A stretch of DNA of 20,046 bases from Candidatus Rokuibacteriota bacterium. GTDB taxonomy: Bacteria; Methylomirabilota; Methylomirabilia; Rokubacteriales; CSP1-6. The position numbers were made by a program, and so were the translations under genes. The stretch covers positions 1 to 20,046 of the forward strand of contig JACPCX010000138.1 in NCBI GenBank assembly GCA_016184305.1, read 5' to 3'. Shown here piece by piece: positions 4,390 to 19,872 of the stretch; position 1 is the first letter of the stretch, and each line of letters begins with the position of its first letter. Under the pieces are notes generated by a model, which saw nothing but the letters and a program-made list of their open reading frames with translations, had not been told where the DNA came from and ran no database searches.

Positions 4390-4439
4390 AGGGTGGTACC
4401 TTGGCGGCGTGCTGAAGGCTCGGCTGCCGCCAGAGGGGA

Positions 4440-4748
4440 CTACTTCTTCGCGTCCTTCGTCCCGGCCGTCACGTCCTTCTTCTCAGCCTTGGCCTGCTTC
4501 TTCTCGGTCTTCTTGGCCACGAACTTCTTCTCGCACTCGGCCTTGGCCGTGTCGTCCTTGGCCGCCTTCAGGCAGCCGGCCTTGGTCTCCTTCTTCTCGG
4601 CCTTCTTCTCCGCCACCTTCTCCTTCTGCTCCTGGCCGGGGGCTGCGGCCTTGCCGGCCTCAGTGGCTGGCTTCGGTTGCGCCACGGCCAGCCCGGCGAC
4701 TGTGAGGGAGAAAGCGATGCTGACGAGCAGCGCGATCATTTTTCTCAT
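4440..4748 (-). CDS. Small secreted Lys/Ala/Glu-rich protein with a Cys pair
   Basis: Strong RBS AAGGAGGTG; Sec-pathway signal peptide ending AVA-Q; KKAEKK-like repeats; CLKAAKDDTAKAEC. Confidence 0.85.
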   Translation of the reverse strand: MRKMIALLVSIAFSLTVAGLAVAQPKPATEAGKAAAPGQEQKEKVAEKKAEKKETKAGCLKAAKDDTAKAECEKKFVAKKTEKKQAKAEKKDVTAGTKDAKK

Positions 4749-4810
4749 GGGGTTTCACCTCCTTCAGTTCCAGATAAGTGCCCATCGCAAAAGATTCTTC
4801 ACAACACCCT

Positions 4811-4840
4811 AACCTAGTTTTTCAGAGCGTCTTCTGTCAA
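4811..4840 (-). promoter_or_regulatory. Putative sigma70 promoter for the small Lys-rich gene
   Basis: Minus strand TTGACA-18nt-TAGGTT in an AT-rich intergenic patch. Confidence 0.5.
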
Positions 4841-4919
4841 GGATAATCTCCGCTCAGGGCACCTCCGGCGTTGACCCCGGAGCCCGGCCATGGTATCAAT
4901 TGCGTGCTTCAACCCCCTC

Positions 4920-6272: not shown

Positions 6273-6511
6273 ACGTCCATGTCCGGCTTTTCGCCACCCT
6301 CTCAGCCTACCTTCCGCGGCTTGCCGGCGGAGACAGCCTGACCCTCGTGCTCGACGAAGGAGCCACGGTCGGACAGGTCATGCAGCTGCTCCAGATCCCC
6401 GAGGACTTCCCCTGCCTGACTGTGGTGAACGGTCGGGATGCAGGGCCCGAGAGAGTCCTCGCCGATGCTGACGTGTTGACCATGTTCCCGCCGCTCGCCG
6501 GGGGCGCGTAG
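6269..6511 (+). CDS. MoaD/ThiS family ubiquitin-like sulfur carrier (80 aa)
   Basis: GTGA overlap; VHVRLFATL, VVNG and FPPLAGG-A C-terminus. Confidence 0.88.
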   Translation: MNVHVRLFATLSAYLPRLAGGDSLTLVLDEGATVGQVMQLLQIPEDFPCLTVVNGRDAGPERVLADADVLTMFPPLAGGA

Positions 6512-6525
6512 CCGCGACTTTGTCC

Positions 6526-6711
6526 TCAGAGGGTGAGCTCACGGCACCGGTAGCAGAGGTGCCGTGGGTCGCCTCCGCACACATGGCAGCTGCGGACGCG
6601 CAGGAGGTCAGGATGGCCTCCGCGGCCCAGCCCGTCACGACGAGCGGGCACCCGCCCGCCGGGACTTCTCCGGAATCTCAGAAGCGCGCGGACCGTCTCC
6701 AGCCACTTCAT
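6526..6711 (-). CDS. Small hypothetical protein with a CxxC-x7-CxxC putative zinc ribbon (61 aa)
   Basis: ATG 6711 preceded by GAGGAGG RBS; CHVCGGDPRHLCYRC. Confidence 0.6.
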   Translation of the reverse strand: MKWLETVRALLRFRRSPGGRVPARRDGLGRGGHPDLLRVRSCHVCGGDPRHLCYRCRELTL

Positions 6712-6830
6712 CGTCGAAGCCTCCTCATCATCTCCCTCCCGCACATGCGGCAACGGGGGTGGATCAGGCCGTGCCGGTCACCCACCACCCGCAGCAGGCG
6801 AAACCGCTCACGTTGCCCTCCCGGGGCTCG

Positions 6831-7148
6831 CTATACTCCCGAGAGCACCGGGACCCGGGAGAGGACGGACTGTGGCAGTGTCACGTGCTCGATGCAGCGG
6901 GTGCAGAAGAAGTCGAGCTCGAGCCCACCTCGGCGGCCGTGGAACTCCAGAGGGCGCCCGCACCAGGAGTGGCAGATGGTGCCGTCCGTGTGGAAGAAGA
7001 CGCTGACGATGGCGGGGAGGGCCTGATGCGCTCCCTCGGTTGCCGAGGGGCGAAGCCTGCCTTCCCGGGAACCCTTGCCGCCGCGCTGGCTGGGCCTCAC
7101 CTCCGTCCTGACCCGTTCCCGCGCTGAGCTGGCCATTGCAGTGCGCAT
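6831..7148 (-). CDS. Hypothetical protein with a putative metal-binding C-terminal domain (105 aa)
   Basis: ATG 7148 preceded by GGGAGG RBS; CHSWC...CTRC; downstream of a sigma54-like promoter. Confidence 0.65.
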   Translation of the reverse strand: MRTAMASSARERVRTEVRPSQRGGKGSREGRLRPSATEGAHQALPAIVSVFFHTDGTICHSWCGRPLEFHGRRGGLELDFFCTRCIEHVTLPQSVLSRVPVLSGV

Positions 7149-7218
7149 GTCGCTTCCTCCCTTCGTGTCTGGCCGCCTCTGTGACCTGGTCTGGCTCACT
7201 GCCCTTGTCGGATGCACG

Positions 7219-7234
7219 AGCAAGATGCATTCCA
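7219..7234 (-). promoter_or_regulatory. Sigma54 (-24/-12) promoter
   Basis: Minus strand TGGAATGCATCTTGCT, with GG-N10-GC spacing matching TGGCACGNNNNTTGCW. Confidence 0.6.
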
Positions 7235-7592
7235 GTGATAGCGAGACTGCGAAGGCCTTGATTTCACGACGAACCGGGTTACGCGCTGCGGGGACGGACT
7301 GACACGCCGTGGAAGCCGGTCAGCAGGAAATGAGACCGGCTTTCCCTATCTCCCGTGGAACTTGTGGGGTCGCTGCTCCCCGAAGGCCAGCACGGCCTCT
7401 CGATGGTCCTCGGTTCCGTGGACCGAGTAGTCCACGGATTTGCCTCGTGGCGTGCCGAGGTCGTGATCTGCGGGCAGCCGCCTCGCCGGTGCCTCAGGGC
7501 GCCGGTTTGGCTCCCCGACACGCGATGATGGGCGAGATCAAGCCCGTCTCCTCGGCGAAAGCAGGTACAATGCGCCCAGGAGGACCCCCCCA

Positions 7593-8555
7593 ATGAAGCG
7601 TTCACTCACGTTGATCGCATTTACCCTGGCAGTCCTGCTCCCCACGCTGTGGTCGGCGGATGCCTGGGCGCGCGCGGGAGGCGGCAGCTCGTTCGGCAGC
7701 CGAGGCTCCCGGAGCTACTCGGCCCCGGCCCGCTCATCTCCCGGAACAACGTCGCCGAGCCGTCCCGCCGCCCCGCCTTCCTCGTTCCAGCAGCCGGCGC
7801 CTCAGCGCTCGGGCTGGATGGGCGGCCTCATGGGCGGGATCGGTGGTCTCGTCCTCGGCGGTCTTCTCGGGAGCATGCTCTTCGGGGGCGGCATGGGCCA
7901 GGGGCTCGGCGGCGGCATCGGGCTCATGGAGATCCTCCTGATGGCGGCGCTCGCCTACTTCGCGTTCTCGTGGTTCAGGCGGCGCCAGCAGCCGGTTCCC
8001 TCCACGCCTATGGGCTATGGCGCGCCAGGCCGGAGCGAGGCCCCCTCCTGGCAGCCCGGGACCGCGTCGGCGGCGACGGCAGCCGTCGAGGCGCCAGCGG
8101 GGCCGAGTGAGCTGGATCTCGGTATCGCCCATATCCGCCAGATGGATCAGGGTTTCGATCCCGGAGGGTTCGGGGAGAGGGCCTCTGACGTGTTCTTCAA
8201 GCTCCAGGCGGCCTGGATGGCGCGCGACATGGCGGCGGCGAAGGAGATCGTGACGCCCGAGATGTATGCCACGTTCCAGAAGGAATGCGACCGGCTGAAG
8301 CAGCAGCGCCGCCTGAACCGCCTCGAGAACATCGCGGTCCGCTCGGTGGATGTGACCGAGGCGTGGCAGGAGGGCGGGCAGGACTTCGTGACGGTGCACT
8401 TCCTGGCGAACCTGCTCGACTACACGCTGGACGAGGCGAGCGATCAGGTCGTCGAGGGCAGTCGTACCGAGCCCGTCAAGTTCGAGGAGTACTGGACATT
8501 CGTGCGGCCCGTCGGGCCCAACGCCTGGAGGCTCAGCGCGATCCAGCAGGCCTGA
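7593..8555 (+). CDS. Tim44-domain membrane protein
   Basis: AGGAGG RBS; signal peptide, ARAGGGSSFGSRGSRS, Gly-rich TM segment, C-terminal LQAAW...FEEYWTFVR...WRLSAIQQ. Confidence 0.92.
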   Translation: MKRSLTLIAFTLAVLLPTLWSADAWARAGGGSSFGSRGSRSYSAPARSSPGTTSPSRPAAPPSSFQQPAPQRSGWMGGLMGGIGGLVLGGLLGSMLFGGGMGQGLGGGIGLMEILLMAALAYFAFSWFRRRQQPVPSTPMGYGAPGRSEAPSWQPGTASAATAAVEAPAGPSELDLGIAHIRQMDQGFDPGGFGERASDVFFKLQAAWMARDMAAAKEIVTPEMYATFQKECDRLKQQRRLNRLENIAVRSVDVTEAWQEGGQDFVTVHFLANLLDYTLDEASDQVVEGSRTEPVKFEEYWTFVRPVGPNAWRLSAIQQA

Positions 8556-8605
8556 AGGGAGCGGGCCGGCATCTTCCGTCTCGCCCGGCCCGTGTCGTCA
8601 GAATC

Positions 8606-8639
8606 CTGCCAGCCGGCGCTCGCAGAGGCCGGCTGGCAG
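8606..8639. terminator. GC-rich hairpin after the Tim44 gene, possible terminator
   Basis: CTGCCAGCCGGC / GCCGGCTGGCAG perfect 12-bp inverted repeat; no U-tract. Confidence 0.4.
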
Positions 8640-8744
8640 CCCCTGCCCGGCTGGTCCCGACACACCCCCGACCTGACCGCATCCCCAGCCGGGGGCCGAC
8701 GTCTCGGGTGTCCAATGGCGTCCGAAACTTTTCACTTGCTTCTT

Positions 8745-8772
8745 ACTTTCGAATATCCTTAAATACGGAAGT
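8745..8772. promoter_or_regulatory. Putative ArsR operator overlapping the operon promoter
   Basis: Imperfect palindrome ACTTTCGAATAT-CCTT-AAATACGGAAGT (9 of 12 pairs) in an AT-rich patch directly before the arsR-family RBS. Confidence 0.55.
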
Positions 8773-8781
8773 GAGGAATCC

Positions 8782-9141
8782 ATGACCTCCACGGACGATC
8801 AGATCTACGAGCTGCACGCGAGCGTCTGCCAGATCCTGGCGAACCCCACGCGGCTGAAGGTCCTCAACGCGCTCAGGGAGCAAGAGATCGCCGTGGCGGA
8901 CCTGGCTCGACGCGTGGGGACCAGCATGCCGAACCTCTCCCAGCACCTGGCCATCCTTCGCCAGCGCGGCGTCGTGCTCACCCGGCGGGAGGGCGCCACC
9001 ATCCACTACCGGATCGCCAACCCAAAGATCCTCCGCGCCTTCGACATCATGCGCGAGGTGCTCTTCGAGCAGATCGCCGAGGGCCGGCGGCTCGTCCGGG
9101 CGGCCGGCGCCGGAGCCCGGCGGAGCCGGACGGCACGGTGA
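8782..9141 (+). CDS. ArsR/SmtB family transcriptional repressor
   Basis: LANPTRLKVL, VADLA, NLSQHLAILRQRGVV and RREGATIHYRI winged-HTH motifs; single Cys (C16). Confidence 0.93.
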   Translation: MTSTDDQIYELHASVCQILANPTRLKVLNALREQEIAVADLARRVGTSMPNLSQHLAILRQRGVVLTRREGATIHYRIANPKILRAFDIMREVLFEQIAEGRRLVRAAGAGARRSRTAR

Positions 9142-9145
9142 CGGG

Positions 9146-9502
9146 ATGCCGCGCCTCCTGACGTTCGTCCTGTCCGCCGGCCCCTACTCGGGCCAGGCCG
9201 CATCCAGCGCGCTGACGCTCGCGAGCGCGGCGCTGGGCGCCGGCCACCGGGCGACCATCTTCGCCACCGCCGATGGGGTCTCCGGCTTCGTGACGAAGCA
9301 GAAGACCGCCGGTGTCTTCGACGTCGGCGCGGCCGCCGCCGCCTTTCTCTCCCGCGGGGGCGACGTCCACCTCTGAGGGTCCTGCCTGCGATTCAGGGGA
9401 ATCGCCGAGGAGGATCTGCTGGCGGGGGCGATGGTCGGAAGTCTCTCGCGTCTCATGACGCTTCTTGGGGAGAGCCACGCCGTGCTCACCTTCGGGCGAT
9501 AG
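9146..9502 (+). CDS. Selenocysteine-containing DsrE/TusD/YchN-family sulfur relay protein (118 aa, U77 in UxxC)
   Basis: In-frame TGA 9374-9376 in VHL-U-GSCLRFRGI; the frame continues 41 codons in DsrE-like sequence (...GSLSRLMTLLGESHAVLTFGR) to TAG 9500-9502; SECIS-like hairpin follows. Confidence 0.9.
9377..9417 (+). promoter_or_regulatory. Bacterial SECIS element 1
   Basis: GCGATTC-AGGG-GAATCGC apical 7-bp stem with a G-rich loop 18 nt after the TGA; lower stem GGGTCCT/AGGATCT and CCT/AGG. Confidence 0.8.
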
Positions 9503-9512
9503 GGCGCGCCTC

Positions 9513-9878
9513 GTGCCGCGGCTCCTGTGCCTCGTGCTCGATCATGCCCCGTATGGCTCACTCCAGCCTGCGGAGGCGATCCGCCATGCCGGGGGGGCGC
9601 TCGGGAAGGGCTGGGAGGTCGTGCTCGCCTTCATGGGAGATAGCGTCTACACGGCGCTGCCGGGACAGGCGCCGCTGCCCGACGGGTGGCTGTCGCTGTC
9701 GGAGGCGCTCGGCGGGATCCTGGAGACGGGCGAGGAGCGAGTGCGAGTATTCGCGGACCAGGACTCCCTCGATGTCCGCGGGCTGTCGGCTGGCGAGCTG
9801 ATTCCCGGCGTGCATCCGGCGGCGGCTGGCGAGATCGCCTCCGCCATGGCCGCCTGCGACAAGACGCTGCTCTTCTGA
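9513..9878 (+). CDS. DsrF/TusC-like DsrE-family protein (121 aa; GTG start corrected from the track)
   Basis: LVLDHAPYGS, AFMGDSVY, DQDSLDVRGL and CDKTLLF motifs; lacks the central active-site Cys, as DsrF does. Confidence 0.8.
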   Translation: MPRLLCLVLDHAPYGSLQPAEAIRHAGGALGKGWEVVLAFMGDSVYTALPGQAPLPDGWLSLSEALGGILETGEERVRVFADQDSLDVRGLSAGELIPGVHPAAAGEIASAMAACDKTLLF

Positions 9879-9885
9879 GGATCCC

Positions 9886-10215
9886 GTGGCCTCGATCCTC
9901 CTGGCCCTGAGCAGCTCGCCGGAAACCCCAGCCGGGCAGCGGGCACTTGCCCTCGCCGGTTCCCTGGCAGATCAGGGGCATGCGCTCACGCTCTGCTGCC
10001 TGCAGGACGCCGTGCTCCTCGGCAGCGATCGTGCCCCAGGAGAGGCGCGAGCCCTGCTCGACAACCTGCTCGATCGGGGCGCACGCTGTCTGGTTCTCCG
10101 CGAGGACCTGCTCCTCCGCGGGCTTCAGGGCGGTGCGCGCGCCCTGACGGTGGACCACGCCGGCCTGATCGCGGCCCTGACCGCCAACCACGACCGGGTC
10201 ATCGGCGCCCTGTGA
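9886..10215 (+). CDS. DsrH/TusB-like protein
   Basis: LQDAVL, VLREDLLLRGL and VDHAGLIAALTANHDRVI match the DsrH/TusB pattern; third gene of a DsrE-fold triplet. Confidence 0.75.
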   Translation: MASILLALSSSPETPAGQRALALAGSLADQGHALTLCCLQDAVLLGSDRAPGEARALLDNLLDRGARCLVLREDLLLRGLQGGARALTVDHAGLIAALTANHDRVIGAL

Positions 10216-12557
10216 GACTGCCGCGCTTCTCGCTCGTTGAGTTCTCCGTCAGACATCCGAAGCTCGTCGTCTCTCTCACGGTCCTCGTCACCCTCGCGTT
10301 CATGACGCAGTTCCCGCGGATGAAGACAGATACGAATCCGAAGAACATGCTTCCGGCAACATCCGACGTCAGGGTATGGAACGATGAGGTGGACAAGACG
10401 TTCGCGCTGTACGAGGACATGATAGTCGTCGGGATCGCACGAGACGGCGGCGCGCTCAACAGCGAGACGCTCGAGAAGGTCGGCAGGATCACGAACGAAC
10501 TCCTCAAGATCAAGGGGGTTGCGGCGAGGGATGTCACCAGCTTCCCCACCATCACCAATGTCACTTCCGAGTCGGGCACCCTGAAGGTGGCGCCGCTCAT
10601 GGTGGCAGTCCCGAAGACGAAGGGCGACATCGAGAACCTCCGCACGTCGCTCTTCGAGAACCCGCTCTTCATCGATCGCATCATCTCGAAGGACGGGAAG
10701 ACGACGGCGATCTACGTTCCTCTCGAACAGGGGGCGAACGGCAGGGACGTGGCAGACCGGATACGGGAGATCGTGGGACGGGAGAAGGGGGACGAGAAGT
10801 ACTACATCGCGGGTGACCCTGTCGTCAGGGACACGTTCGGCGCAGAGATGTTCACGCTCATGGCGATCCTTGCGCCGATCGCAGGGATGATCATGCTCGT
10901 CGTCCGGTATGTCATGTTCAGGGACCTCTTCCTCTCCATCGTGCTGATGATGGATGCCATGATCAGCATAGTGTGGAGCATGGGGCTGCTCATAGCGCTA
11001 GGATTCCCGATTCACATCATGAGCTCCATGGCTCCCGTCTTCTTGATGGCCATCGCGACCGACAGCATTCACATCTTCAACGAGTTCTACTTCCGCTTCA
11101 GGGAGAAGCAGGACAAGACGGCGGCGATCATCGAGACCATGCAGGCGGTGGGCCGCCCCGTCCGCTACACCGCGCTGGCAACGGCCGCGGGCTTTGGAGT
11201 GCTCCTGTTCATGAGCATCGTGCCGGTGCAGGTCTTTGGAGGCCTGGTGGCATTCGGGACCGTGGCGCTGCGGATCCTGAGCTTCAGCTTCATCCCCGCC
11301 ATGTTCACCTTCGTGAAAGAGGCGAATATCGAGAAGGCGGCCCAGGGAGAAGACGTGTCGTCGAGCAGGACCTCGGTGTTCCTGAGGGCGCTTGCCGGAA
11401 TCGGTGCGTATCGACCCAGGACGACTGTTCTCGTGGGCCTCCTGCTGTGTGCGCTGGCGATCACGGGGATCACGCGGATTGTCGTGAACAACAACATGGT
11501 GGAGTGGTTCAAGAGCGGCAGCGAGATACGGGTGGCGGACGCGGAGATCAACAGGGCGCTCGGGGGCACGTCTCTCGGCTATGTGGTGGCAGTGTCGAAA
11601 GAGGAGGACTTCATCAAGACTCCTGAGGCACTGAAGTACATCGCGAATCTCCAGCGGCATCTGGAAACGCTGCCGGTCGTGGGGAAGACGTTCTCCGTCG
11701 CAGACTACGTGAAGAGGATCAACCGTGTCCTTCACAACGACGACCCCGCGTTCGCTGTCATTCCTGAGACAAAGGAGGCTGTGGGCCAATACCTGTTCCT
11801 GTTCAGCATGTCTGCGAAGCCGTCGGACCTGAACAATGTGGTCGATTACCCTTTCAGCAGGGCGAACATCTGGATTCAGCTCAAGACGTGGGATGCGCGG
11901 GCGATGGAGGAGGTCATCAGGGCGCTCGACGGCTACAAGAAGGCCCACCCGATTGCTCTGGAGCTCAAGCCTGCGGGCATCGCCTACTTCAACCTCGTCT
12001 GGAACCGCGAGGTTCTGTGGGACATGGTCACGGGGTTCCTGTTGGCCCTCATCGTGGTATTCGTCATCCTCGTCTTGAACTTCCGTTCCGTCAGGTGGGC
12101 CGTGGTGAGCTATGTCCCGCTCCTGTTCACGATTCTCCTCATCTACGGGGCGGTGGGATTCAGCGGCAAGCGGTTTGACATGCCCATCTCCGTGCTGTCG
12201 TGTCTGTCTCTCGGGATGGCGGTGGACTTCTCGATTCATTTCATCAGCAGGTTCAAGCAGAGACTGGCGGAGAGCAAGGAGCTCGGAGCTCGGAGATCAG
12301 ACGCCGACCTCATCACCGAGTCGTTGCTGTGGACTGCCGCGAGACCTGGCAAGGGAATCATGCGGAACGCGGTGCTGTTCGCGGCGTCTTTTGCGGTGAT
12401 GATGCTCGCGCCGCTGACGCCCTATGTCACCGTCGGTGCGTTCATCGTGAGCATGATGATGCTGAGCGCGCTCATGACGATGATCTATCTGCCGGCACTG
12501 ATCGTGTGGCTGCGAGGGTGGCTGTTTCCGGGAGGCCTGACATGGTCGCGGCAGTGA
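10212..12557 (+). CDS. MMPL/RND superfamily transporter
   Basis: 781 aa with a twofold TM+periplasmic repeat; IATDSIH and MAVDFSIH proton-relay-type motifs; GTGA overlap. Confidence 0.92.
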   Translation: MRLPRFSLVEFSVRHPKLVVSLTVLVTLAFMTQFPRMKTDTNPKNMLPATSDVRVWNDEVDKTFALYEDMIVVGIARDGGALNSETLEKVGRITNELLKIKGVAARDVTSFPTITNVTSESGTLKVAPLMVAVPKTKGDIENLRTSLFENPLFIDRIISKDGKTTAIYVPLEQGANGRDVADRIREIVGREKGDEKYYIAGDPVVRDTFGAEMFTLMAILAPIAGMIMLVVRYVMFRDLFLSIVLMMDAMISIVWSMGLLIALGFPIHIMSSMAPVFLMAIATDSIHIFNEFYFRFREKQDKTAAIIETMQAVGRPVRYTALATAAGFGVLLFMSIVPVQVFGGLVAFGTVALRILSFSFIPAMFTFVKEANIEKAAQGEDVSSSRTSVFLRALAGIGAYRPRTTVLVGLLLCALAITGITRIVVNNNMVEWFKSGSEIRVADAEINRALGGTSLGYVVAVSKEEDFIKTPEALKYIANLQRHLETLPVVGKTFSVADYVKRINRVLHNDDPAFAVIPETKEAVGQYLFLFSMSAKPSDLNNVVDYPFSRANIWIQLKTWDARAMEEVIRALDGYKKAHPIALELKPAGIAYFNLVWNREVLWDMVTGFLLALIVVFVILVLNFRSVRWAVVSYVPLLFTILLIYGAVGFSGKRFDMPISVLSCLSLGMAVDFSIHFISRFKQRLAESKELGARRSDADLITESLLWTAARPGKGIMRNAVLFAASFAVMMLAPLTPYVTVGAFIVSMMMLSALMTMIYLPALIVWLRGWLFPGGLTWSRQ

Positions 12558-12591
12558 GGAAAGCGCTGCCGAGTCCGACGGGAGGGAAGCG

Positions 12592-13404
12592 ATGGCTCTG
12601 AACAGGGCAGTGGCGGCTGTCATCCTCGCTCTGCTGGCGGTCTCCTGGCTGGCGCAGCCGTCGGCCGCGCAGCCTTCAGCGGACCAGATCATGTCACGCG
12701 CCCACCTGGCCATGTACTACCCCGGGGAGGATATGCGGGCGCGGGTCACGATGCGCCTGGTCTCGCGCGACGGCAAGGAGCGGCTTCGTGAGCTGACCAT
12801 GACGCGGCGGGACCTCCAGGACGGGGGGGAGCAGCGATACTTCATATACTTCCACCGGCCGCCGGACGTCCGGGACATGACGTTCCTCGTCTGGAAGTAC
12901 CCGGGCAAGGACGATGACCGCTGGCTCTACATTCCCGCCCTGAAGCTGGTTCGGCGGATCGCGGCCAGCGACAAGCGGTCGAGCTTCGCAGGCTCGGATT
13001 TCAGCTACGAGGACATCTCCGGGCGGGAGCCAGAGGAGGACACCCACAAGCTGATCAGGGAGGACAAGGCGGGCGCCCGGGATGCCTACGTCGTGGAGAG
13101 CGTCCCGAAGGACCCCGGCAGCGTGGACTTCGGGCGGAAGCTCTCGTGGATCGACAAGGGGAGGGGGCTGCCGCTCAAGGAGGAGTACTTCGATCGCCGG
13201 GGCGACCTGGCGCGGGTCTTCACCGCCGAGGAGATCACGGAGATCCAGGGTTTCTGGACGGTCACCAGGCGCGTCATGAAGAACGCACAGACCGGCCACT
13301 GGACAGAGGCGGTGCTGGCCGACGTGCGCTACAACCAGAAGCTCGCCCCCGATCTCTTCAGCGAGCGCGCGCTCCGAGCCCCCCCGACCGAGCTGGTGCG
13401 GTGA
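12592..13404 (+). CDS. Outer membrane lipoprotein-sorting (LolA-like) periplasmic protein
   Basis: GGGAGG RBS; signal peptide; PPDVRDMTFL, DDDRWLYIPALKLVRRI and FAGSDFSYEDI motifs. Confidence 0.9.
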   Translation: MALNRAVAAVILALLAVSWLAQPSAAQPSADQIMSRAHLAMYYPGEDMRARVTMRLVSRDGKERLRELTMTRRDLQDGGEQRYFIYFHRPPDVRDMTFLVWKYPGKDDDRWLYIPALKLVRRIAASDKRSSFAGSDFSYEDISGREPEEDTHKLIREDKAGARDAYVVESVPKDPGSVDFGRKLSWIDKGRGLPLKEEYFDRRGDLARVFTAEEITEIQGFWTVTRRVMKNAQTGHWTEAVLADVRYNQKLAPDLFSERALRAPPTELVR

Positions 13405-14672
13405 CAGGCCGCGCGGCGCTGGCGTGGCTCGCCGCCGCCGCGACCCTGGCGCTCGGGGGCGGTGCAGAGGCGGACGAGGACGGCGTCCCGCTCCACGGCT
13501 TCGTGCAGGCGGGGACGGCGTATCGGCTGATCCAGCCCGACCGATGCGCCCGCACCCAGCGGCTCGCCTGCAGGGAGCCCTTCGTCCTGGGCGAGGGCCG
13601 GGCCCGGGTCGAGTTGACGCCGCGGGGAGAGTGGTGGGGCCTCACCGCCAAGGGCGAGATGATCTTCGACGCGCTCGTGCCCGAGGTGGACGGGGAGCTG
13701 CGGGAGGGCTATCTCGACCTCGCGCTCGGGCCCCTGGACCTGCGTATCGGGCGCCAGGTCATCACCTGGGGCGTGGGGGACCTGGTCTTCATCACCGACG
13801 TCTTCCCCAAGGACTGGGTCGCCTTCATCGCGGGGCTCCCGCTCGAGTACCTGAAGAAGGGCTCGGACGCCGTCAGCGCCACGGGCCACTGGGCCGGGAC
13901 CTCGCTCCAGCTCGTCCTGATCCCTCGCTTCGAAACCGACACGCTCCCCGAGGCCGGCGGCCGGCTCGCCTTCCATGATCCCGCAGCAGCGGTGGAGCGG
14001 CGCTACACGGACGACCCCACGCCCTCGCTCGGCCACACGGAAGCCGGCGCGCGCCTGTCCCGCAACGTCCTCGGCTGGGACCTGTCGCTCTACGCCTATC
14101 GCGGCTTCTTCCACACGCCGGCCGGCGAAGTGGAGCCGGGACCACGACTCCGGCTCTTCTTCCCGCCGCTCAGCGTCTACGGCGCCAGCGCCCAGGGGGC
14201 CCTGCTGGGCGGCGTCCTGAGCCTCGAGGCGGGCTACTCGGATTCCCGCGACGATCGATCCGGAGGCAACGCGGCCGTCGAGAACTCCTCCGTGAAACTG
14301 CTCGCAGGCTACCAGCGGGAGGTGCTTCCGGACCTGACTCTCTCGGGCCAGTATACCGTCCACGTGATGGAGGACCACGGCGAGTACGTCCGGAGCCGGG
14401 GCCCGGGCATGCCGCGCCGGAGCGCCGCCCGGCATGTCCTGACCGCCCGGCTGACCCAGCTCCTGCTCCATCAGACGCTCCGGCTCGGCCTGTTCGGGCT
14501 GGCGAGCCCCAGCGACGGCGACTGGTATCTGGGGCCGGAGGCGCGGTACCAGATCACGGATGCCCTCTCGGCGACGCTGGGGCTGAACGTCTTCGGGGGC
14601 CCCCGCCGCAGCGACTACGGCCAGTTCGAGGGCAACTCGAGTCTCTACACCGTGGTCCGTTATGCCTTCTGA
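13401..14672 (+). CDS. Outer-membrane beta-barrel protein (DUF1302-like), 423 aa
   Basis: GTGA overlap; signal peptide; LREGYLD and LRIGRQVITWG; amphipathic strands; C-terminal VRYAF BAM-type signal. Confidence 0.8.
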   Translation: MTGRAALAWLAAAATLALGGGAEADEDGVPLHGFVQAGTAYRLIQPDRCARTQRLACREPFVLGEGRARVELTPRGEWWGLTAKGEMIFDALVPEVDGELREGYLDLALGPLDLRIGRQVITWGVGDLVFITDVFPKDWVAFIAGLPLEYLKKGSDAVSATGHWAGTSLQLVLIPRFETDTLPEAGGRLAFHDPAAAVERRYTDDPTPSLGHTEAGARLSRNVLGWDLSLYAYRGFFHTPAGEVEPGPRLRLFFPPLSVYGASAQGALLGGVLSLEAGYSDSRDDRSGGNAAVENSSVKLLAGYQREVLPDLTLSGQYTVHVMEDHGEYVRSRGPGMPRRSAARHVLTARLTQLLLHQTLRLGLFGLASPSDGDWYLGPEARYQITDALSATLGLNVFGGPRRSDYGQFEGNSSLYTVVRYAF

Positions 14673-14689
14673 AAGGAGGTGATGGGGTA

Positions 14690-14898
14690 ATGGCGCTCCA
14701 CATGGAGCAGTGGCTTCGGTTGCTGGGGGGCATCATGGTCCTCGGCAGCGTCCTGCTCGCGGTGGTCCACAGCCCCCAGTGGCTCTGGGTGACCGGCATC
14801 ATGGTGATCAACCTGATCCACAGTCCGCCTTCACCAACTTCTGACCGTCCATGCTCCTCCTGCGGGCGGCAGGAGTGAAGGAGCAGGGGGCGCGGTAG
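14690..14898 (+). CDS. DUF2892/YgaP-like small membrane protein with putative selenocysteine, interrupted by a 2-nt frameshift (pseudogene or sequence error)
   Basis: RBS AAGGAGGTGA. Removing the duplicated CA at 14819-14822 gives NLIQSAFTNF-U-PSMLLLRAAGVKE (68 aa), matching family NLxQSAFTxWCP with TGA at the Cys; ends TAG 14896-14898, 3 nt before the next ATG. Confidence 0.78.
14845..14895 (+). promoter_or_regulatory. Bacterial SECIS element 2
   Basis: CTCCTGC-GGGCG-GCAGGAG 7-bp stem with a G-rich loop 19 nt after TGA 14842-14844; lower stem TGCTC/GAGCA. Confidence 0.68.
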
Positions 14899-14901
14899 CG
14901 C

Positions 14902-15627
14902 ATGGAGGCGTCGCGGCTGGAGTTGCCCGGGGGCGGGCAGTTCGACACGCTCGCGCCCGCATACGACGCCTGGTACGACACCCCGCTCGGCAGGGTCGTG
15001 GATCGACTCGAGAGCGGGGCGGTGCTCGGCCTCGTCGGCGAGGGGCCTGGTGCCTGGGCGCTCGACCTGTCATGCGGGACGGGGCGCTACGCCCTTGCCC
15101 TAGCGCGCCGGGGCCTGAGGGTCGTGGGGGTGGACATCTCCGAGCCCATGCTCCTCGTCGCGCGCGCGAAGGCGCGCGAGGCCGGGTGTGACCTCCGCCT
15201 CGTCAGGGCCGACGCGCGAGCGTTGCCCTTCCGAGCGGGCACTGTCGATCTCGTGACGATCATCCTCGGGCTCGAGTTCGTTGGCGAGCCGCGAGGCGTC
15301 CTGGAGGGATGCCATCGTGTCCTGGTGCCGGGCGGGAGCCTCGTGATCGCGATCCTGAATCGCGCGGGACTCTGGACCGTCTGGCGCCGGCTGAAGCGCC
15401 TCGTGGTTCCCTCCGTCTGGGGTGGCGCGACCTTTCTCAGCCCCGCCGAGCTGGGCGACCTGCTGCGTGCCCGCGGTTTCACCGGGCTGCGGTGGCGCGA
15501 CGCGGTACACTTCTTACCGCTCCTCGGGCGCAGACGGGTGGGCTGGCTCGAGCGCTGGGAGGCGATCGGCGCTCGGTGGATGCCTGGACGGGCGACCTTC
15601 GTGGCGGTGGCGGCGCGGCGCGCATAG
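14902..15627 (+). CDS. Class I SAM-dependent methyltransferase
   Basis: YDAWYDTPLG, LDLSCGTG, GVDISEPML, ADARALPF and RVLVPGG motifs. Confidence 0.92.
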   Translation: MEASRLELPGGGQFDTLAPAYDAWYDTPLGRVVDRLESGAVLGLVGEGPGAWALDLSCGTGRYALALARRGLRVVGVDISEPMLLVARAKAREAGCDLRLVRADARALPFRAGTVDLVTIILGLEFVGEPRGVLEGCHRVLVPGGSLVIAILNRAGLWTVWRRLKRLVVPSVWGGATFLSPAELGDLLRARGFTGLRWRDAVHFLPLLGRRRVGWLERWEAIGARWMPGRATFVAVAARRA

Positions 15628-15776
15628 CAGGCTGCTGAAAAAGGCCCATCTGCTTCGTTGGCGCCCTCGGCCGCACGCTCAACGTACAGCGAGTACGCCT
15701 CGCGTGCGGCCGTCGGGCGCCGCCTCGCATCTGGACCTTTTTGAGCAGCCCGCAGGGTTTTCCCGCATCCTGATAG
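15625..15776. repeat. Palindromic MITE/REP-like non-autonomous element
   Basis: GCAGGCTGCTGAAAAAGG (15627-15644) vs CCTTTTTGAGCAGCCCGC (15736-15753), 16/18 inverted match; nested palindrome; second degenerate end near 15758-15775; TAG at both flanks. Confidence 0.75.
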
Positions 15777-15789
15777 AGGAGGAGGGGCG

Positions 15790-16938
15790 ATGGCGACCAC
15801 GGTGATCCTGGGGGGCGGAGTCGGGGGTCTCGTCACCGCCAGCACGCTGAGGCGCCGGCTCGACCGGACGCACCGCATCATCCTGGTCGAGCGCCAGCGC
15901 CAGCACGTCTTCACCCCCTCCTTCCTGTGGATGATGCTCGGCTGGCGCGAGCCCCACGAGATCGCCCGTGACCTCGCGAGCCTCGAGCGCAAGGGGATCG
16001 AGGTCGTCCAGGACGAGATCCGCGAGATCGATCCCGTTGCGCGTCAGGTGAAGACCGAGCGCCGCACGCTCTCCGGCGACTACCTCGTCCTGGCGCTTGG
16101 CGCCGAGGGGTGGCTCGGCGGCATCCCGGGCCTGGCCAGCGCCGGCCACAACGTCTACGATCTCGAGGGCGCGCTGGGGCTGCGCGATGCCCTGCGCCAG
16201 TTCCGCGAGGGGCGCGTGGCGGTGCTCATCGCGGGGCTGCCGTTCAGGTGCCCGGCGGCGCCCTACGAGGCCGCCATGCTGATCGAGGCCTCGCTCAGCC
16301 GGCGCGGGCTTCGCGAGCGGGCGCAGGTGGACGTCTACACCCCCGAGACGCTGCCCATGCCCGTCGCGGGCCGCGCGATGGGGGAAGCCGTGAAGGGGCT
16401 GGTCGAGAGCCGCGGGGTCGGCTTCCATCCACAGCACAAGGTGGTGGCCGTGGATCCGGAGCGGCGGGAGCTGGCGTTCGAGAACGGCGCCAGGGCTGGC
16501 TACGACCTGCTCGTCGTGATCCCGCCGCACCGGTGCGCCCCCGTCGTGAAGGAGGCGGGGCTCACCGTCGAGCCCGGCTGGGTGCCGGTGGACAAGGGGA
16601 CGCTCCAGACGAGCTACGAGCGCGTCTTCGCCATCGGGGACACGACGCTGATCAAGTTGCCCGTGGGGCTGCCGCTGCCGAAGGCGGGCGTCTTCGCCCA
16701 TGGCCAGGGCGAGGTGGTGGCCGAGAACATCGCCGCGGAGGTCGCCGGAGGGAGCGGCGCGCGGCGCTTCGACGGCTTCGGCTCCTGCATCATCGAGATG
16801 GGCCACGGGGTGGCCGCCTACGCGAAGGGCAACTTCTACGCGGAGCCCGCGCCCGCGATGACGATGCGCTCGCCGAGCCGGCTCTGGCACTGGGGGAAGA
16901 TCTACTTCGAGAAGCGGTGGCTGCGGCGGTGGTTCTGA
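15790..16938 (+). CDS. Sulfide:quinone oxidoreductase-like FAD-dependent disulfide oxidoreductase (type III SQR-like)
   Basis: GGGVGG Rossmann motif, FRCPAAPYE, FAIGD, LPKAGVFA, distal Cys in GSCIIEMG, C-terminal amphipathic WHWGKIYFEKRWL. Confidence 0.85.
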   Translation: MATTVILGGGVGGLVTASTLRRRLDRTHRIILVERQRQHVFTPSFLWMMLGWREPHEIARDLASLERKGIEVVQDEIREIDPVARQVKTERRTLSGDYLVLALGAEGWLGGIPGLASAGHNVYDLEGALGLRDALRQFREGRVAVLIAGLPFRCPAAPYEAAMLIEASLSRRGLRERAQVDVYTPETLPMPVAGRAMGEAVKGLVESRGVGFHPQHKVVAVDPERRELAFENGARAGYDLLVVIPPHRCAPVVKEAGLTVEPGWVPVDKGTLQTSYERVFAIGDTTLIKLPVGLPLPKAGVFAHGQGEVVAENIAAEVAGGSGARRFDGFGSCIIEMGHGVAAYAKGNFYAEPAPAMTMRSPSRLWHWGKIYFEKRWLRRWF

Positions 16939-16977
16939 CGCGATGCTCGCGCCCGTGACGGAGAAGGAGCCGCACCG

Positions 16978-18867
16978 GTGATCCCGAAGGCGATGGCGGC
17001 GTACCTGGCCGAGCGGCTGCCCGAGCGTGCCCTGGAGAACCGCCTGGTGCGCGACGGAGGCTTGCGCTTCGTGGAGTTCGGCTCCACCGACGTGGACAGG
17101 CTGGCGCGGCTCGGGATCGAGGTGGACCCGCTCGGCCCGCAGCTCTGCGTGTGCATGTGGGACGAGGCCTCCGCGCTCCCGATCGGCGGCTACCTCGTCG
17201 TGGACAACCTGGCCATGGGCCGGCCGGCCATGGGCGGCATCCGCATGCTGCCCGACCTCAACCCCGACGTCGTCCACAACCTCGCGCGCGGCATGACCCT
17301 CAAGAACGCGGCGGCGCACCTGCCCTATGGCGGCGGCAAGTCCGGCATCGTTTCCCCGGGCGATGATCTCTCTCCGGACGCGCGCACCGAGGTGGTGCGG
17401 GGCTTCGCCCGCCTGCTCTCGCGCTACCGCGACCTCTACCTGCCCGGGCCGGACGTGGGCACCAACGACGCCGACATGAAGACCATCGCCGTCGAGAACG
17501 GTCTGGACAGCGCCGTCTCCAAGCCGGCCGACATGGGCGGCAACCGCATCGACCAGCTGGGCGCGGCTGCGGGAGGCATCGTCATCGCGCTGGAGGCGCT
17601 ACTCCGGGAGATGCCCCGCCTCCGCGTCCTGCCCCAGTTCAGCACGCTCCAGGTGCCGCCGCGCGAGGCGCTCACCGTGCTCATCCAGGGCTTCGGCGCG
17701 GTCGGAGCCCACGCCGCGCACATGCTGAGCGAGCGGCTGCCCGGCGCCAGGGTCGTGGGCATCAGCGACGCCGCCGGCTATCTCTACGATGAGGCCGGCC
17801 TGCCGGTGGACGCGCTGTTCCGCCGCTGGCAGGCTGAGAGCGTGGTGACGCGGCCGTATTTCCTCGAGCAGGTGACGGCCGCGGGGGGGACGGCCGCCGG
17901 CCCCCGTGCTCTCCGGTTCACGTATTCGAGCCAGCCGAACGACTTGCTGCGCGAGAGCGCCTTCTGTCTGATCCCGGCCGCCCCCGTCGCCAACTACCTC
18001 GGCACCGATCCGGCCTCGCAGCCGTCCATGACGGTGGACCGGATGGGACGCTGGACGGTGAGCGTGGAGGGCGCCAACACCTACTCGCCGGATCCCGCGC
18101 GGAAGGCAGCGCGCGCCCGCATGGAGCGGGCTGTCTACCGGCAGCGGGGTGTGCTGATCGCCACCGACTATCTCGTGAACTCGGGCGGCGTGATCTTCGC
18201 GGCCCAGGAACTGCTCATCCAGACGCCGGAGAGTCTGCGCATCCCGCAGGCCATGCTCGGCGACCGGGCCGCCGTCGAGCGCTGGCTCGCCGAGCATGCC
18301 GCCGAGCTCCAGGCGCTGGCCGAGAGGCGGCGGGCCGCCGCGGAGGCGTACCGCGACGACGTGATCCGCCGGAACATGCATGAGCTGGTGGACCTCCTGG
18401 TCTCCGACGCCGACATGCTCCCCGGCGAGGCGGCCGAGCGCATCAGCGTCCGGCGCATCGCCACGCGAGAGAGCGGCCGCACCGCCGCCGACCTCATGGA
18501 GCCCATCCCGACCGTCGCCGTCACCTGCACGTTTCGCCAGGCGGCGGCCAGGCTCGTGGAGGCCCACAGCCCCATCGCGGCCGTCGTCGGCCCCCAGGGC
18601 GACCTCGTCGGCGTCGTGACCGAGTGGGACGTGACGCGCGCCACCGCCCAGGGCGCCCCCCTGGACGAAGCCGTCACCGAGATCATGACCCGCCAGGTCA
18701 TCGCGGTGGCCCCCGGCGACGGCATCCTGGACATGGTGCGCAAGCTCGAGCACCATGACATCTCGGCCATGCCGGTGGTGGCCGGCAGCGTGGTGCGGGG
18801 GATGGTCACCGCCGATCTGCTGGCCCGGCGCTCGCTCTTCCGGCTGCTGCAGTCGCAGCCGGAGTGA
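16978..18867 (+). CDS. Glu/Leu/Phe/Val dehydrogenase-family protein fused to a C-terminal CBS domain pair
   Basis: GGIRM, MTLKNA, GGGKSG, GPDVGT, QGFGAVG, EGAN and VNSGGV motifs; CBS motifs LVGVVTEWDV and HDISAMPVV...GMVT. Confidence 0.88.
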   Translation: MIPKAMAAYLAERLPERALENRLVRDGGLRFVEFGSTDVDRLARLGIEVDPLGPQLCVCMWDEASALPIGGYLVVDNLAMGRPAMGGIRMLPDLNPDVVHNLARGMTLKNAAAHLPYGGGKSGIVSPGDDLSPDARTEVVRGFARLLSRYRDLYLPGPDVGTNDADMKTIAVENGLDSAVSKPADMGGNRIDQLGAAAGGIVIALEALLREMPRLRVLPQFSTLQVPPREALTVLIQGFGAVGAHAAHMLSERLPGARVVGISDAAGYLYDEAGLPVDALFRRWQAESVVTRPYFLEQVTAAGGTAAGPRALRFTYSSQPNDLLRESAFCLIPAAPVANYLGTDPASQPSMTVDRMGRWTVSVEGANTYSPDPARKAARARMERAVYRQRGVLIATDYLVNSGGVIFAAQELLIQTPESLRIPQAMLGDRAAVERWLAEHAAELQALAERRRAAAEAYRDDVIRRNMHELVDLLVSDADMLPGEAAERISVRRIATRESGRTAADLMEPIPTVAVTCTFRQAAARLVEAHSPIAAVVGPQGDLVGVVTEWDVTRATAQGAPLDEAVTEIMTRQVIAVAPGDGILDMVRKLEHHDISAMPVVAGSVVRGMVTADLLARRSLFRLLQSQPE

Positions 18868-19132: not shown

Positions 19133-19160
19133 TGGTAGACTGATGGCATGAAGACTACCA
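19133..19160 (+). promoter_or_regulatory. TA promoter/operator: extended -10 and autoregulatory palindrome
   Basis: TGG-TAGACT (19133-19141) ends 6 nt before ATG 19148; inverted repeat TGGTAGACT / AGACTACCA. Confidence 0.55.
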
Positions 19161-19405
19161 TTGACAAGGCAGGCAGGGTGGTGATTCCAGTGGCCATCCG
19201 CAACAAGGTGGGGCTGCGGCCGGGCGCGGAGCTCGATGTGCTGGTCGACGAGGGGTCGATCCGCCTCGTGCGTGCGGTGTCGAGGCCCAAGCTGGTGCGC
19301 GTCGGGAGGCGTCTGGTGGCCCGCCCCACGGTGGATCCGAGGCGGCTCCCCTCCATCGACGTGGCGCGGGTGATCGAGGAAGAGCGGAATCGATGGCCGC
19401 ACTGA
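19148..19405 (+). CDS. AbrB/MazE/SpoVT family antitoxin (VapB-like)
   Basis: MKTTIDKAGRVVIPVAIRNKVGLRPG swapped-hairpin motif; overlaps the PIN gene. Confidence 0.92.
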   Translation: MKTTIDKAGRVVIPVAIRNKVGLRPGAELDVLVDEGSIRLVRAVSRPKLVRVGRRLVARPTVDPRRLPSIDVARVIEEERNRWPH

Positions 19406-19872
19406 CACCGGCCTTCCTGGACACCAGCGTCCTCGTCGCCGGCCTGATCGAGATCGGTGGGCCCTCGGAATACCCGCAGCGGATCATGACAGCGATCGCG
19501 GGGGGACAGGTCCGACGGGCCGTCACGGCCTGGCACTGCTGCCTGGAGTTCTATTCCGTCACGACGCGGCTTCCGGAAGAATTCCGGCTCGCTCCCGAGG
19601 AGGCGCTCCGCCTGGTCGAGGAGGAGGTCATCGGGAGGCTCGAGGTGCGGCAGCTCTCGGACCGGGACCGGGAAGGCTTCCTCCGGGCTCTCGAGCAGGA
19701 GCGCGTGATCGGCGGTCGTGTCTACGATGCCCACATCGCCGAGGTGGCCCGTGTCTCCGGCGCACGGGTTATCGTCACCGACAACCGCCGCCACTTCCTG
19801 TCCCTGGGGCGCCACGGGATCCGCGTGCTTGGCGCCGAGGAGTTCGTCAAGGCCGCCGGTCTGGGCCGCTGA
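19393..19872 (+). CDS. vapC: PIN-domain ribonuclease toxin (VapC family)
   Basis: FLDTSVL, conserved E in CCLEF, YDAHIA and IVTDNRRHF PIN acidic residues. Confidence 0.9.
   Translation: MAALTPAFLDTSVLVAGLIEIGGPSEYPQRIMTAIAGGQVRRAVTAWHCCLEFYSVTTRLPEEFRLAPEEALRLVEEEVIGRLEVRQLSDRDREGFLRALEQERVIGGRVYDAHIAEVARVSGARVIVTDNRRHFLSLGRHGIRVLGAEEFVKAAGLGR

Follow-up and report, generated by a model that had tools for sequence, protein, structure and literature searches.

A selenocysteine-containing DsrE-like trio, an SQR-like flavoprotein and a putative trans-envelope pump recur as a gene cluster in Methylomirabilota

The gene row

We analysed a stretch of 20,046 nucleotides (nt) from Candidatus Rokuibacteriota bacterium (contig JACPCX010000138.1 of assembly GCA_016184305.1), which we will term the window. 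It is contig C79 of a 3.2-Mb metagenome-assembled genome (MAG) that has 239 contigs and is 88.8% complete. Identification with Pfam and NCBIfam gave eleven reading frames, all on the + strand (8782-18867): an ArsR-family regulator, a trio of genes that resemble dsrE, dsrF and dsrH, a triad of transport genes (MMPL, LolA-like and barrel), a DUF2892 gene, an S-adenosylmethionine (SAM) methyltransferase, a flavoprotein similar to sulfide:quinone oxidoreductase (SQR), and a dehydrogenase. Judged by gene order in relatives, all of these genes but the last belong to a ten-gene cluster that is found repeatedly across Methylomirabilota (Rokubacteria), and the first gene of the trio encodes a selenocysteine (Sec). 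An earlier reading of the window from its letters alone (the sequence-only reading) had proposed a stand-alone sulfur or selenium module coupled to a trans-envelope pump, and strong comparative evidence is consistent with such a module. Their association with a pump is suggestive, though no proof, of the expulsion of a sulfur or selenium product that does not dissolve in water. The features are as follows (aa, amino acids; RND, resistance-nodulation-division).

8735-8764, + strand: promoter-like site (CTTGCT, 18 nt, TTAAAT) with a TTTCGAA palindrome at 8747-8753, candidate ArsR operator
8782-9141, + strand: ArsR/SmtB-family regulator, 119 aa, single Cys (C16); HTH_5, 48.3 bits
9146-9502, + strand: DsrE/YchN-like protein, 118 aa, Sec at residue 77; PF02635, 70.3 bits
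9388-9405, + strand: hairpin like a selenocysteine insertion sequence (SECIS), GCGAUUC-AGGG-GAAUCGC
9513-9878, + strand: DsrF/TusC-like second subunit of the DsrE/F family, 121 aa; PF02635, 44.1 bits
9886-10215, + strand: DsrH/TusB-like subunit, 109 aa; PF04077, 21.7 bits, below the cut-off of 24.4
10212-12557, + strand: MMPL-type RND inner-membrane transporter, HAE3-like, 781 aa; PF03176, 95.9 bits
12592-13404, + strand: LolA-like periplasmic protein with signal peptide, 270 aa; PF17131, 212 bits
13401-14672, + strand: outer-membrane β-barrel with signal peptide and C-terminal ...RYAF, 423 aa; identified by fold
14690-14898, + strand: DUF2892/YgaP-like_TM gene, frameshifted; Sec codon TGA at 14842-14844
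14902-15627, + strand: class I SAM methyltransferase, UbiE-like, 241 aa; Methyltransf_11, 88 bits
15628-15789, no strand: palindromic interspersed repeat; 109 blastn high-scoring segment pairs in the MAG
15790-16938, + strand: SQR-like flavoprotein, 382 aa; Pyr_redox_2, 86 bits
16978-18867, + strand: Glu/Leu/Phe/Val-type dehydrogenase with two CBS domains; identified with Pfam

The spacing between genes ranges from a 4-nt overlap to 39 nt, with the sole exception of 162 nt between the methyltransferase and the SQR-like gene. As the sequence-only reading had said, this gap holds a palindromic repeat. The repeat is about 130-160 nt long, and its summed contig depth in four metagenomes is 2,000-13,000, as compared to 10-100 for its flanks. 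Contigs from sequencing runs X1, X5 and X9 join 15623 directly to 15773, so some alleles lack the repeat and it marks no operon boundary. Within the cluster, scans found 1 promoter site and 4 terminator sites, where shuffled sequence would give 0.7 and 2.4; counts this close to the shuffled level neither favour nor oppose a single transcript.

Conservation of the cluster in Methylomirabilota

We compared the window with 33 non-redundant loci of the phylum, which were found with an alignment of DsrE and with the LolA-like protein. (Our genome counts, for 41 related genomes and for 251 genomes of the phylum, include the unpublished G012, G115, G238, G074 and G084, and no specific claim depends on these.) Upstream genes were counted at the 24 loci that contain the MMPL start and at least 1.5 kb upstream of it, and downstream genes at the 19 loci that extend at least 2 kb past the barrel.

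An intact trio with Sec in its DsrE-like subunit lies directly upstream of MMPL in 19 of the 24 loci. Past the barrel, 12 of the 19 loci have SQR, 10 have the methyltransferase (two as fragments) and 8 have DUF2892; at least one of these three genes occurs in 16 of the 19. ArsR heads the cluster in 19/34 loci. The triad holds its position between DsrH and DUF2892, methyltransferase or SQR across five families, even where the MMPL gene was exchanged (see below), and the linkage of the cluster survives deletion of dsrEFH. Synteny, which the sequence-only reading had left as a check on itself, is conserved.

A selenocysteine codon in the DsrE-like gene

The DsrE-like gene has an in-frame TGA (9374-9376) which, if read as Sec (U), yields the motif L-U-G-S-C. 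The protein matches PF02635 with 70.3 bits (cut-off 22.7), and its reading frame is conserved past the TGA. In the 41 related genomes, all 9 orthologs with at least 61% identity have one single TGA. It falls within U-G-[S/T]-C in 22/22 Methylomirabilota loci (window included), and this motif is still seen at 41-44% identity in two further families of the class. Most database proteins of this group are cut short at the TGA and have 76 residues. Full-length Cys homologs also exist (ELCGSCLRFRG), and C-G-[S/T]-C is found in 36 of 39 metagenome relatives, a count that is biased towards Cys forms because the search pattern contained Cys.

A SECIS-like hairpin begins 14 nt past the UGA and folds at -18.2 kcal/mol (z -2.2). 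Of 12 aligned orthologs, 10 have it unchanged or almost unchanged; the two most divergent ones, folded separately, have different hairpins at the same location. Covariation is weak (2 pairs with double changes, covariation term -0.08): ten of the sequences barely differ at this site, and the register is shifted in the two divergent ones. So, we draw support for the SECIS from the separate folds and not from covariation.

The MAG encodes SelD, which itself carries one TGA (Sec-type). We did not find selA, selB or a tRNA-Sec in this 88.8%-complete assembly, in which ARAGORN found only 26 tRNAs. As adjacent selA and selB genes score over their cut-offs in 5/5 relatives (two of the same genus), we ascribe their absence to incomplete assembly. 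In the phylum, 228/251 genomes have SelD, and almost every match that was listed contains a single TGA. The expected co-occurrence with Sec machinery is thus found, and it is well supported by these comparisons that the DsrE-like gene bears a true selenocysteine codon.

This family of selenoproteins has been known since 2005, when Zhang, Fomenko and Gladyshev catalogued a "DsrE-like protein, UxxC" family in the Sargasso Sea (PMC1088965), and it is also listed in a 2026 review (PMC13188914). Like the protein in the window, the catalogued family has a small DsrE fold, Sec as the first residue of UxxC, Cys homologs, and a SECIS after the UGA. Where these two papers list it, the family is given without a function or a gene context, whereas the protein in the window is subunit E of an E-F-H trio that precedes an RND exporter.

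Relationships and losses of the DsrEFH-like trio

Three consecutive genes of the DsrE, DsrE/F and DsrH types, with Sec in the column of the active-site Cys of TusD, could be taken for canonical TusBCD or DsrEFH, which would serve 2-thiouridine in tRNA or reverse Dsr sulfur oxidation. We consider this extremely improbable. The equivalog models for TusD/DsrE, TusC/DsrF and TusB/DsrH (TIGR03012, TIGR03010 and TIGR03011) score just 22-25 bits against cut-offs of 49-94: 22.4 vs. 89.25, 25.4 vs. 94.15 (the second subunit on TIGR03010) and 22.3 vs. 49.2. Among the open reading frames (ORFs) of the window that were scanned, there is no dsrAB, dsrC, tusA, tusE or mnmA, as had been stated from the letters alone. 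DsrC/TusE (PF04358) also has no match in the MAG, which at 88.8% completeness does not prove its absence. The best solved relative of the DsrE-like protein is E. coli YchN (PDB 1jx7) with 36.8 bits, as compared to 20.3 bits for TusD. Sec aligns both with the TusD column and with a Cys in the C-K-T-C of YchN (LCKTC), and the second Cys of UxxC is not a feature of the aligned TusD sequence. The proposed distinction from reverse Dsr and tRNA thiolation is therefore upheld, with YchN as the nearest solved relative.

YchN shares the DsrE fold and the placement of C-x-x-C but is a single, stand-alone gene product, and we know of no function for it. TusBCD (PDB 2d1p) shares the fold and has its active Cys in the same column, but it needs TusE, which was not found here. 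A literature search for a link between YchN and sulfide:quinone oxidoreductase found none.

The DsrF/TusC-like subunit is always second in the trio. The DsrH-like subunit keeps the third position and the motifs LQDAV and EDLxxRG, and the stop codon of its gene overlaps the start of MMPL (GTGA). The trio is absent in L099 (same genus, from a 98% complete genome), L106, L109 and L110. At each of these loci, a remnant lies between ArsR and MMPL: a short ORF in which the first codons of DsrE are joined to the last codons of DsrH, e.g., MTARRTFVLAAAHDRVIGAL up to its stop. (The coordinates are L099:11560-11900, L106:12500-12830, L109:12380-12520 and L110:12360-12500.) All four mini-ORFs still run up to the start of MMPL, as though coupled translation with the pump gene had been kept. 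As the remnants differ from each other, dsrEFH has been deleted independently in at least four loci. We also considered whether the trio was lost along with Sec decoding and rejected this idea, as G003, G218 and G221 lack the trio yet have selA and selB. Judging from these losses, the trio is dispensable for the rest of the cluster and an optional part of it.

The DUF2892 gene

The sequence-only reading had counted two Sec carriers, the DsrE-like protein and the DUF2892 protein. The former stands, but the gene for the latter is disrupted in the window. A 2-nt insertion at 14819-14820 puts its N-terminal transmembrane part, which starts at 14690, out of frame with the C-terminal ...QSAFTNFUPSMLLLRAAGVKEQGAR. 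In intact orthologs, a single frame gives ...NLIQSAFTNFU.... Due to the frameshift, the copy in the window scores just 16.3 bits on PF11127 (cut-off 25.3), while an intact ortholog (L049) scores 39.9 bits. We compared contigs of four runs from four studies at the lesion: the two extra letters are present in X1 and are absent from all covering contigs of X5, X9 and X11. So, the lesion is real here, and sister populations keep the gene. In this population DUF2892 is a pseudogene, and the row encodes one intact Sec protein instead of two.

Four other copies are damaged. L048 has an extra G in a G-run, L046 has a deletion of ~26 nt that removes FTNFU, L102 has TGG changed to TGA in the membrane helix, and L111 has an internal deletion (sites at L048:13720-13960, L046:8100-8330, L102:5360-5620 and L111:5020-5180). 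There are thus five different lesions in five genomes, in a gene whose nucleotide sequence is otherwise highly conserved. The gene is intact in L049, L110 and L112. A literature search limited to the pair DUF2892 and selenocysteine found nothing.

Regulator, flavoprotein, methyltransferase and flanking genes

The SQR-like flavoprotein matches FCSD_central (36 bits), and its best NCBIfam model is the selenoprotein subtype of type III SQR (NF049943, 233.7 bits against a cut-off of 525). There is no in-frame TGA inside the gene, so it does not belong to the Sec subtype. Its best solved relative is human SQOR (113 bits), it also aligns with bacterial SQRs, and both redox Cys are kept (...FRCPAAP... 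and ...GSCII... align with the two Cys of SQOR). (Read-through at the terminal TGA was considered and rejected: this TGA is an ordinary stop, and the in-frame stretch downstream is the N-terminus of the dehydrogenase.)

The methyltransferase scores 66.5 bits on Ubie_methyltran (PF01209; cut-off 20.1), and its best solved relatives are TT1324 and UbiG. It is not ArsM: models of arsenite methyltransferases give 38-39 bits against cut-offs of 263-510. In the UbiE family, MddH methylates H2S and methanethiol (PMC11445057), and MddM1 and MddM2 of the UbiE/UbiG family are described alongside it as H2S/methanethiol S-methyltransferases (PMC11445057, PMC12904073). The protein in the window resembles MddH by family, not by compared sequence, in that it is a UbiE-type class I SAM methyltransferase of the cytosol, with sulfide as the likely stress. 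As these genes are presented in the sources, MddH has no neighbourhood of sulfur genes, whereas the gene here is embedded between SQR and the exporter.

The regulator scores over the cut-offs of NF033788 (84.7 bits) and HTH_5, and its nearest solved structures are Rv0081, NolR, HlyU and BigR. The sequence-only reading had likened it to persulfide sensors of the SqrR/BigR type. This likeness fails: the Cys pair is missing, and the score on the BigR equivalog (NF040642) is 58.5 bits against a cut-off of 155. C16 (in HAxxCQ) is conserved in cluster-linked orthologs. A second Cys near position 86 (RACDLMR) is found in L052 and in the Cys-type clusters discussed below and is replaced by Phe in the window. 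By eye, a CTTGAC ... ACTTTCGAA ... TTAAAT layout recurs upstream of ArsR in many divergent orthologous loci, and the TTTCGAA palindrome would be the candidate operator for ArsR. (A generic promoter scan did not list the 8735-8764 site.) In the same MAG, a paralogous ArsR (45% identical) lies directly before a TusA-family gene (G000:C228:3871-4445).

According to a preprint (bioRxiv 10.1101/2025.02.17.638619), operons for sulfide detoxification with sqr, pdo, rhodanese and TauE/YeeE genes are under the ArsR/CstR-type sensors SqrR, BigR and sHdrR/SoxR, and RND pump genes are noted beside such regulators. As in the operons described there, an ArsR-family regulator heads SQR and sulfur carriers in the window. 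The differences are that the present ArsR conserves only one Cys (C16), not two, that there is no persulfide dioxygenase in the window, that the carrier is a Sec-containing DsrEFH-like trio, and that the pump is HAE3-like and has its own periplasmic and outer-membrane parts.

The dehydrogenase with CBS domains, the last gene of the row, follows SQR only in the window and in L099 of the same genus (2 of the 19 loci that reach far enough). It is adjacent and co-oriented but, from gene order, is not part of the conserved module, so of the eleven-gene row originally proposed, ten genes remain. The start of contig C24 (G000:C24:2-109) encodes the last 36 residues of this protein at 100% identity, probably because the assembled contigs overlap or a contig end is duplicated. 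The region right after the cluster (19148-19872) has a MazE-type antitoxin gene that overlaps a gene for a PIN-domain toxin. Near the start of the window, a PhoU_div (DUF47) gene is followed by a gene for a PHO4 phosphate transporter (896-2786), which is an ordinary pair.

The transport triad

The best NCBIfam model for the MMPL protein is TIGR00921 (HAE3), with 189.8 bits against a cut-off of 351.9. The LolA-like protein is over the cut-offs of both PF17131 (212 bits) and DUF1329 (34.6 vs. 23.1). The third protein had been taken for an outer-membrane barrel of the DUF1302 family. The family assignment falls short in Pfam (18.1 bits against a cut-off of 23.2, over one 26-residue stretch), but the fold is borne out: an AlphaFold2 model made with 20 orthologs has about 20 strands (pLDDT 68.8, pTM 0.70), and Foldseek matches it to MOMP, AlgE and general porins (E 1e-10 to 1e-12, TM about 0.5). 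The model thus supports the view that the 423-aa protein folds as an outer-membrane β-barrel.

The LolA-like protein is also predicted to dock on the barrel. Modeled together, the mature proteins score 0.90 in 3/3 runs, as compared to 0.01 for the best of three controls; this score is the model's own confidence, reached from shallow alignments that we made ourselves. At least 96% of the contacts are common to the runs, the pLDDT of the partner is 89, and the contacts of the LolA-like protein encircle the periplasmic turns of the barrel. In a calibration of this score, 116/157 solved complexes and 2/215 mismatched pairs reached the mark. To our knowledge, there is no solved complex of such a pair.

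The MMPL gene occurs in three forms, which are 80-99%, about 50% and about 40% identical to the copy in the window. In a comparison with L045, L049, L052, L099 and L100, the neighbouring LolA-like and barrel genes are still 70-92% identical. The LolA-like protein has 65-90% identity overall, and 70-83% where MMPL is replaced by forms of only 40-50% identity, so the pump gene seems to have been exchanged, or to have diverged, without leaving its place.

The closest known system is AmeABCD of Castellaniella defragrans, which combines an HAE3 pump with three other proteins, namely one of the DUF1329/LolA-like type, one of DUF1302 in the outer membrane and a fourth. Tolerance to monoterpenes drops when the system is deleted, and it was proposed to move hydrophobic molecules across the whole envelope (PMC6394551). 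The triad shares an RND pump, here HAE3-like, the periplasmic protein of the LolA superfamily and the outer-membrane protein. As AmeABCD is described in that paper, it differs in several ways. It includes AmeC (COG4447/Ycf48-like), for which there is no counterpart among the ORFs scanned in the window, and the gene order is different. Its barrel has 605 aa instead of 423, and ours does not reach the DUF1302 cut-off. Its periplasmic protein is a 451-aa DUF1329 protein, while ours belongs to PF17131. Finally, AmeABCD lies among genes for terpene catabolism and the triad among sulfur genes.

These relatives raise the possibility that the row has two unrelated functions in one transcription unit. 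The triad would export or insert a component of the envelope, or expel solvents, and would merely be co-regulated with the sulfur genes, for example, if the envelope is remodelled under sulfide stress. Known relatives handle hopanoids (HpnN) or monoterpenes (AmeABCD; PMC6394551), the triad and DsrEFH are each found without the other, and paralogs of the LolA-like protein are common elsewhere in the phylum: it has matches in 52/251 genomes, of which about 28 are orthologs (at least 65% identity) and the paralogs are about 30% identical. However, the triad is single-copy in the MAG, and each ortholog-grade triad that was inspected with enough flanking sequence adjoins at least one sulfur or selenium gene (DsrEFH, SQR, DUF2892, methyltransferase, ArsR or SelD). 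Its position is also fixed across the five families and through the exchange of MMPL. On balance, we view two unrelated functions as rather unlikely.

The triad could also run inwards. Barrels with periplasmic partners can work in both directions, and DUF1302/DUF1329 proteins have reportedly been linked to alkane uptake in Marinobacter (AupA/AupB). If so, the triad would import a hydrophobic source of sulfur (elemental sulfur or organosulfur), to be processed inside by DsrEFH, SQR and the methyltransferase. This seems very unlikely because the RND/MMPL pumps characterised to date move their substrates outward (for HAE3, see PMC6394551) and because SQR consumes sulfide, not S(0).

Cys-type clusters and links to selenium

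A scan of metagenomes with the Cys-type proteins gave 39 loci. None of these has a match to MMPL, the LolA-like protein or the barrel (0/39). An SQR-like gene (about 50% identity) is present in 11 of the 15 Cys-type loci that are longer than 3 kb, and several loci also have ArsR and the methyltransferase, arranged as ArsR-SQR-(methyltransferase)-DsrE-F-H. Other neighbours are a fusion of a metallo-β-lactamase (MBL) fold and a rhodanese, which resembles persulfide dioxygenases, together with a major facilitator superfamily transporter (L060 and L076); an MBL protein (L061); and a membrane methyltransferase of the ICMT/PEMT type (L067). This content is typical of clusters for the detoxification of sulfide or persulfide. 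So, the sulfur or selenium genes do travel together as a module, even without the transporter, and loci without the triad imply that ArsR, SQR, methyltransferase and DsrEFH-like genes make up an older and wider unit. In Methylomirabilota, the pump triad lies in the middle of this unit. Literature searches on DsrE with quinone oxidoreductase, persulfide dioxygenase and methyltransferase found no description of the present cluster, and searches on dimethyl trisulfide, methyltransferase, polysulfide and sulfide quinone found nothing relevant.

Some loci hint that the module may be mainly for selenium. The DsrEFH-like complex, with its Sec/Cys-Gly-x-Cys site, would bind selenide or selenotrisulfide and either pass it to SelD or direct an excess of selenium to methylation and export as hydrophobic Se(0) or methylselenides. 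The SQR-like enzyme would have selenide as its substrate or provide sulfane sulfur for selenium chemistry. At L060, a gene for a Sec-type SelD (SHGAGUACK; 6900-7988) lies 10 nt upstream of the Cys-type DsrE of a DsrEFH trio. At L118 (in G047), another (SHGAGUACK; 5486-6601) is directly upstream of MMPL-LolA. Both score 348-360 bits on TIGR00476, for which the cut-off is 125. At L112 (1095-6910), a two-domain rhodanese and an enzyme of the type II dimethyl sulfoxide (DMSO) reductase family are inserted between DsrH and MMPL; the alpha subunit scores 988 bits on TIGR03479, and the iron-sulfur and haem-b subunits are present. The type II DMSO-reductase family includes selenate reductase and dimethyl sulfide dehydrogenase. 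Also, YedF, which comparative genomics has tied to the use of selenium, is described as having a DsrE-like domain with the same CGxC motif (PMC5322559). Finally, Sec is used heavily in the phylum, as indicated by the 228 of 251 genomes with SelD.

On the other hand, SelD was seen next to just two loci, one among the 34 of the phylum and one among the 39 from metagenomes, and it lies on another contig in this MAG (G000) and in the other relatives that were compared. The SelD adjacencies and the insertion in L112 are exceptions and not the rule. The recurrent partners, SQR and sometimes the MBL-rhodanese fusion, are hallmarks of sulfide detoxification, and the active site being that of a selenoprotein says nothing about the substrate. 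We therefore regard a module devoted mainly to selenium as fairly improbable.

Proposed role in the export of reactive sulfur

We propose that the row is one ArsR-controlled operon for reactive sulfur that derives from sulfide, and that its product is expelled by an AmeABCD-like system. This is the account we prefer, but we hold it tentatively, at somewhat less than even chances. Starting from the gene identities, Sec decoding, linkage, barrel fold and predicted LolA-barrel interface, we infer the whole of the chemistry, what the substrate is and which way it is transported. The SQR-like flavoprotein would oxidise sulfide to sulfane sulfur. The DsrEFH/YchN-like heterotrimer would take up or reduce this sulfane sulfur at the Sec-Gly-Ser-Cys site of its E subunit, and the UbiE-type methyltransferase would probably add methyl caps to it. 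(The substrate of the module would be sulfide or sulfane sulfur, and possibly selenide.) The product would be zero-valent sulfur, polysulfanes or methylated sulfides, which are poorly soluble, and it would leave via the HAE3-like RND pump in the inner membrane, the LolA-like protein in the periplasm and the docked barrel in the outer membrane.

Several observations weigh against this proposal. First, its parts can occur separately. Cys-type modules exist without the transporter (0/39 have it), and the transporter is kept without DsrEFH in L099, L106, L109, L110 and L102, so these two parts are not obligate partners. None of SQR, methyltransferase and DUF2892 follows the barrel in 3 of 19 loci (L045, L055 and L107), and ArsR is missing beside at least six clusters that have at least 2 kb of upstream sequence. 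Second, the memberships in HAE3 and DUF1302 are under the curated cut-offs, the barrel model is only moderately confident, and the score for its complex with the LolA-like protein is the model's own. The methyltransferase reaches no NCBIfam functional equivalog, its likeness to MddH is one of family, and ArsR lacks the two-Cys signature of the proven persulfide sensors BigR and SqrR. Third, the two loci with an adjacent Sec-type SelD point to selenium rather than sulfur.

A more specific claim would be that the cluster encodes a trans-envelope exporter dedicated to zero-valent or methylated sulfur or selenium, the first of its kind. In it, a Sec-containing DsrEFH-like carrier would pass sulfane sulfur or selenium to an HAE3 pump on the cytoplasmic side, and the LolA-like protein, as a chaperone, would ferry the insoluble product to the docked barrel. 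We consider this claim, taken as a whole, to be doubtful.

Implications

How insoluble zero-valent or methylated sulfur and selenium move across the Gram-negative envelope is poorly understood, and hardly anything has been characterised of HAE3 pumps that have LolA-like and barrel partners. The cluster offers a defined unit of six to ten genes that ties such a pump genetically to an enzyme for sulfide oxidation, a methyltransferase and carriers of sulfur or selenium. It also assigns a gene context to a long-known DsrE-like selenoprotein family that had no function, and it points to a Sec form of DUF2892. The cluster is widespread in an abundant, uncultured phylum of soil and groundwater, and if the exporter reading is true, it would be a molecular answer to how bacteria expel hydrophobic S(0) or Se(0).

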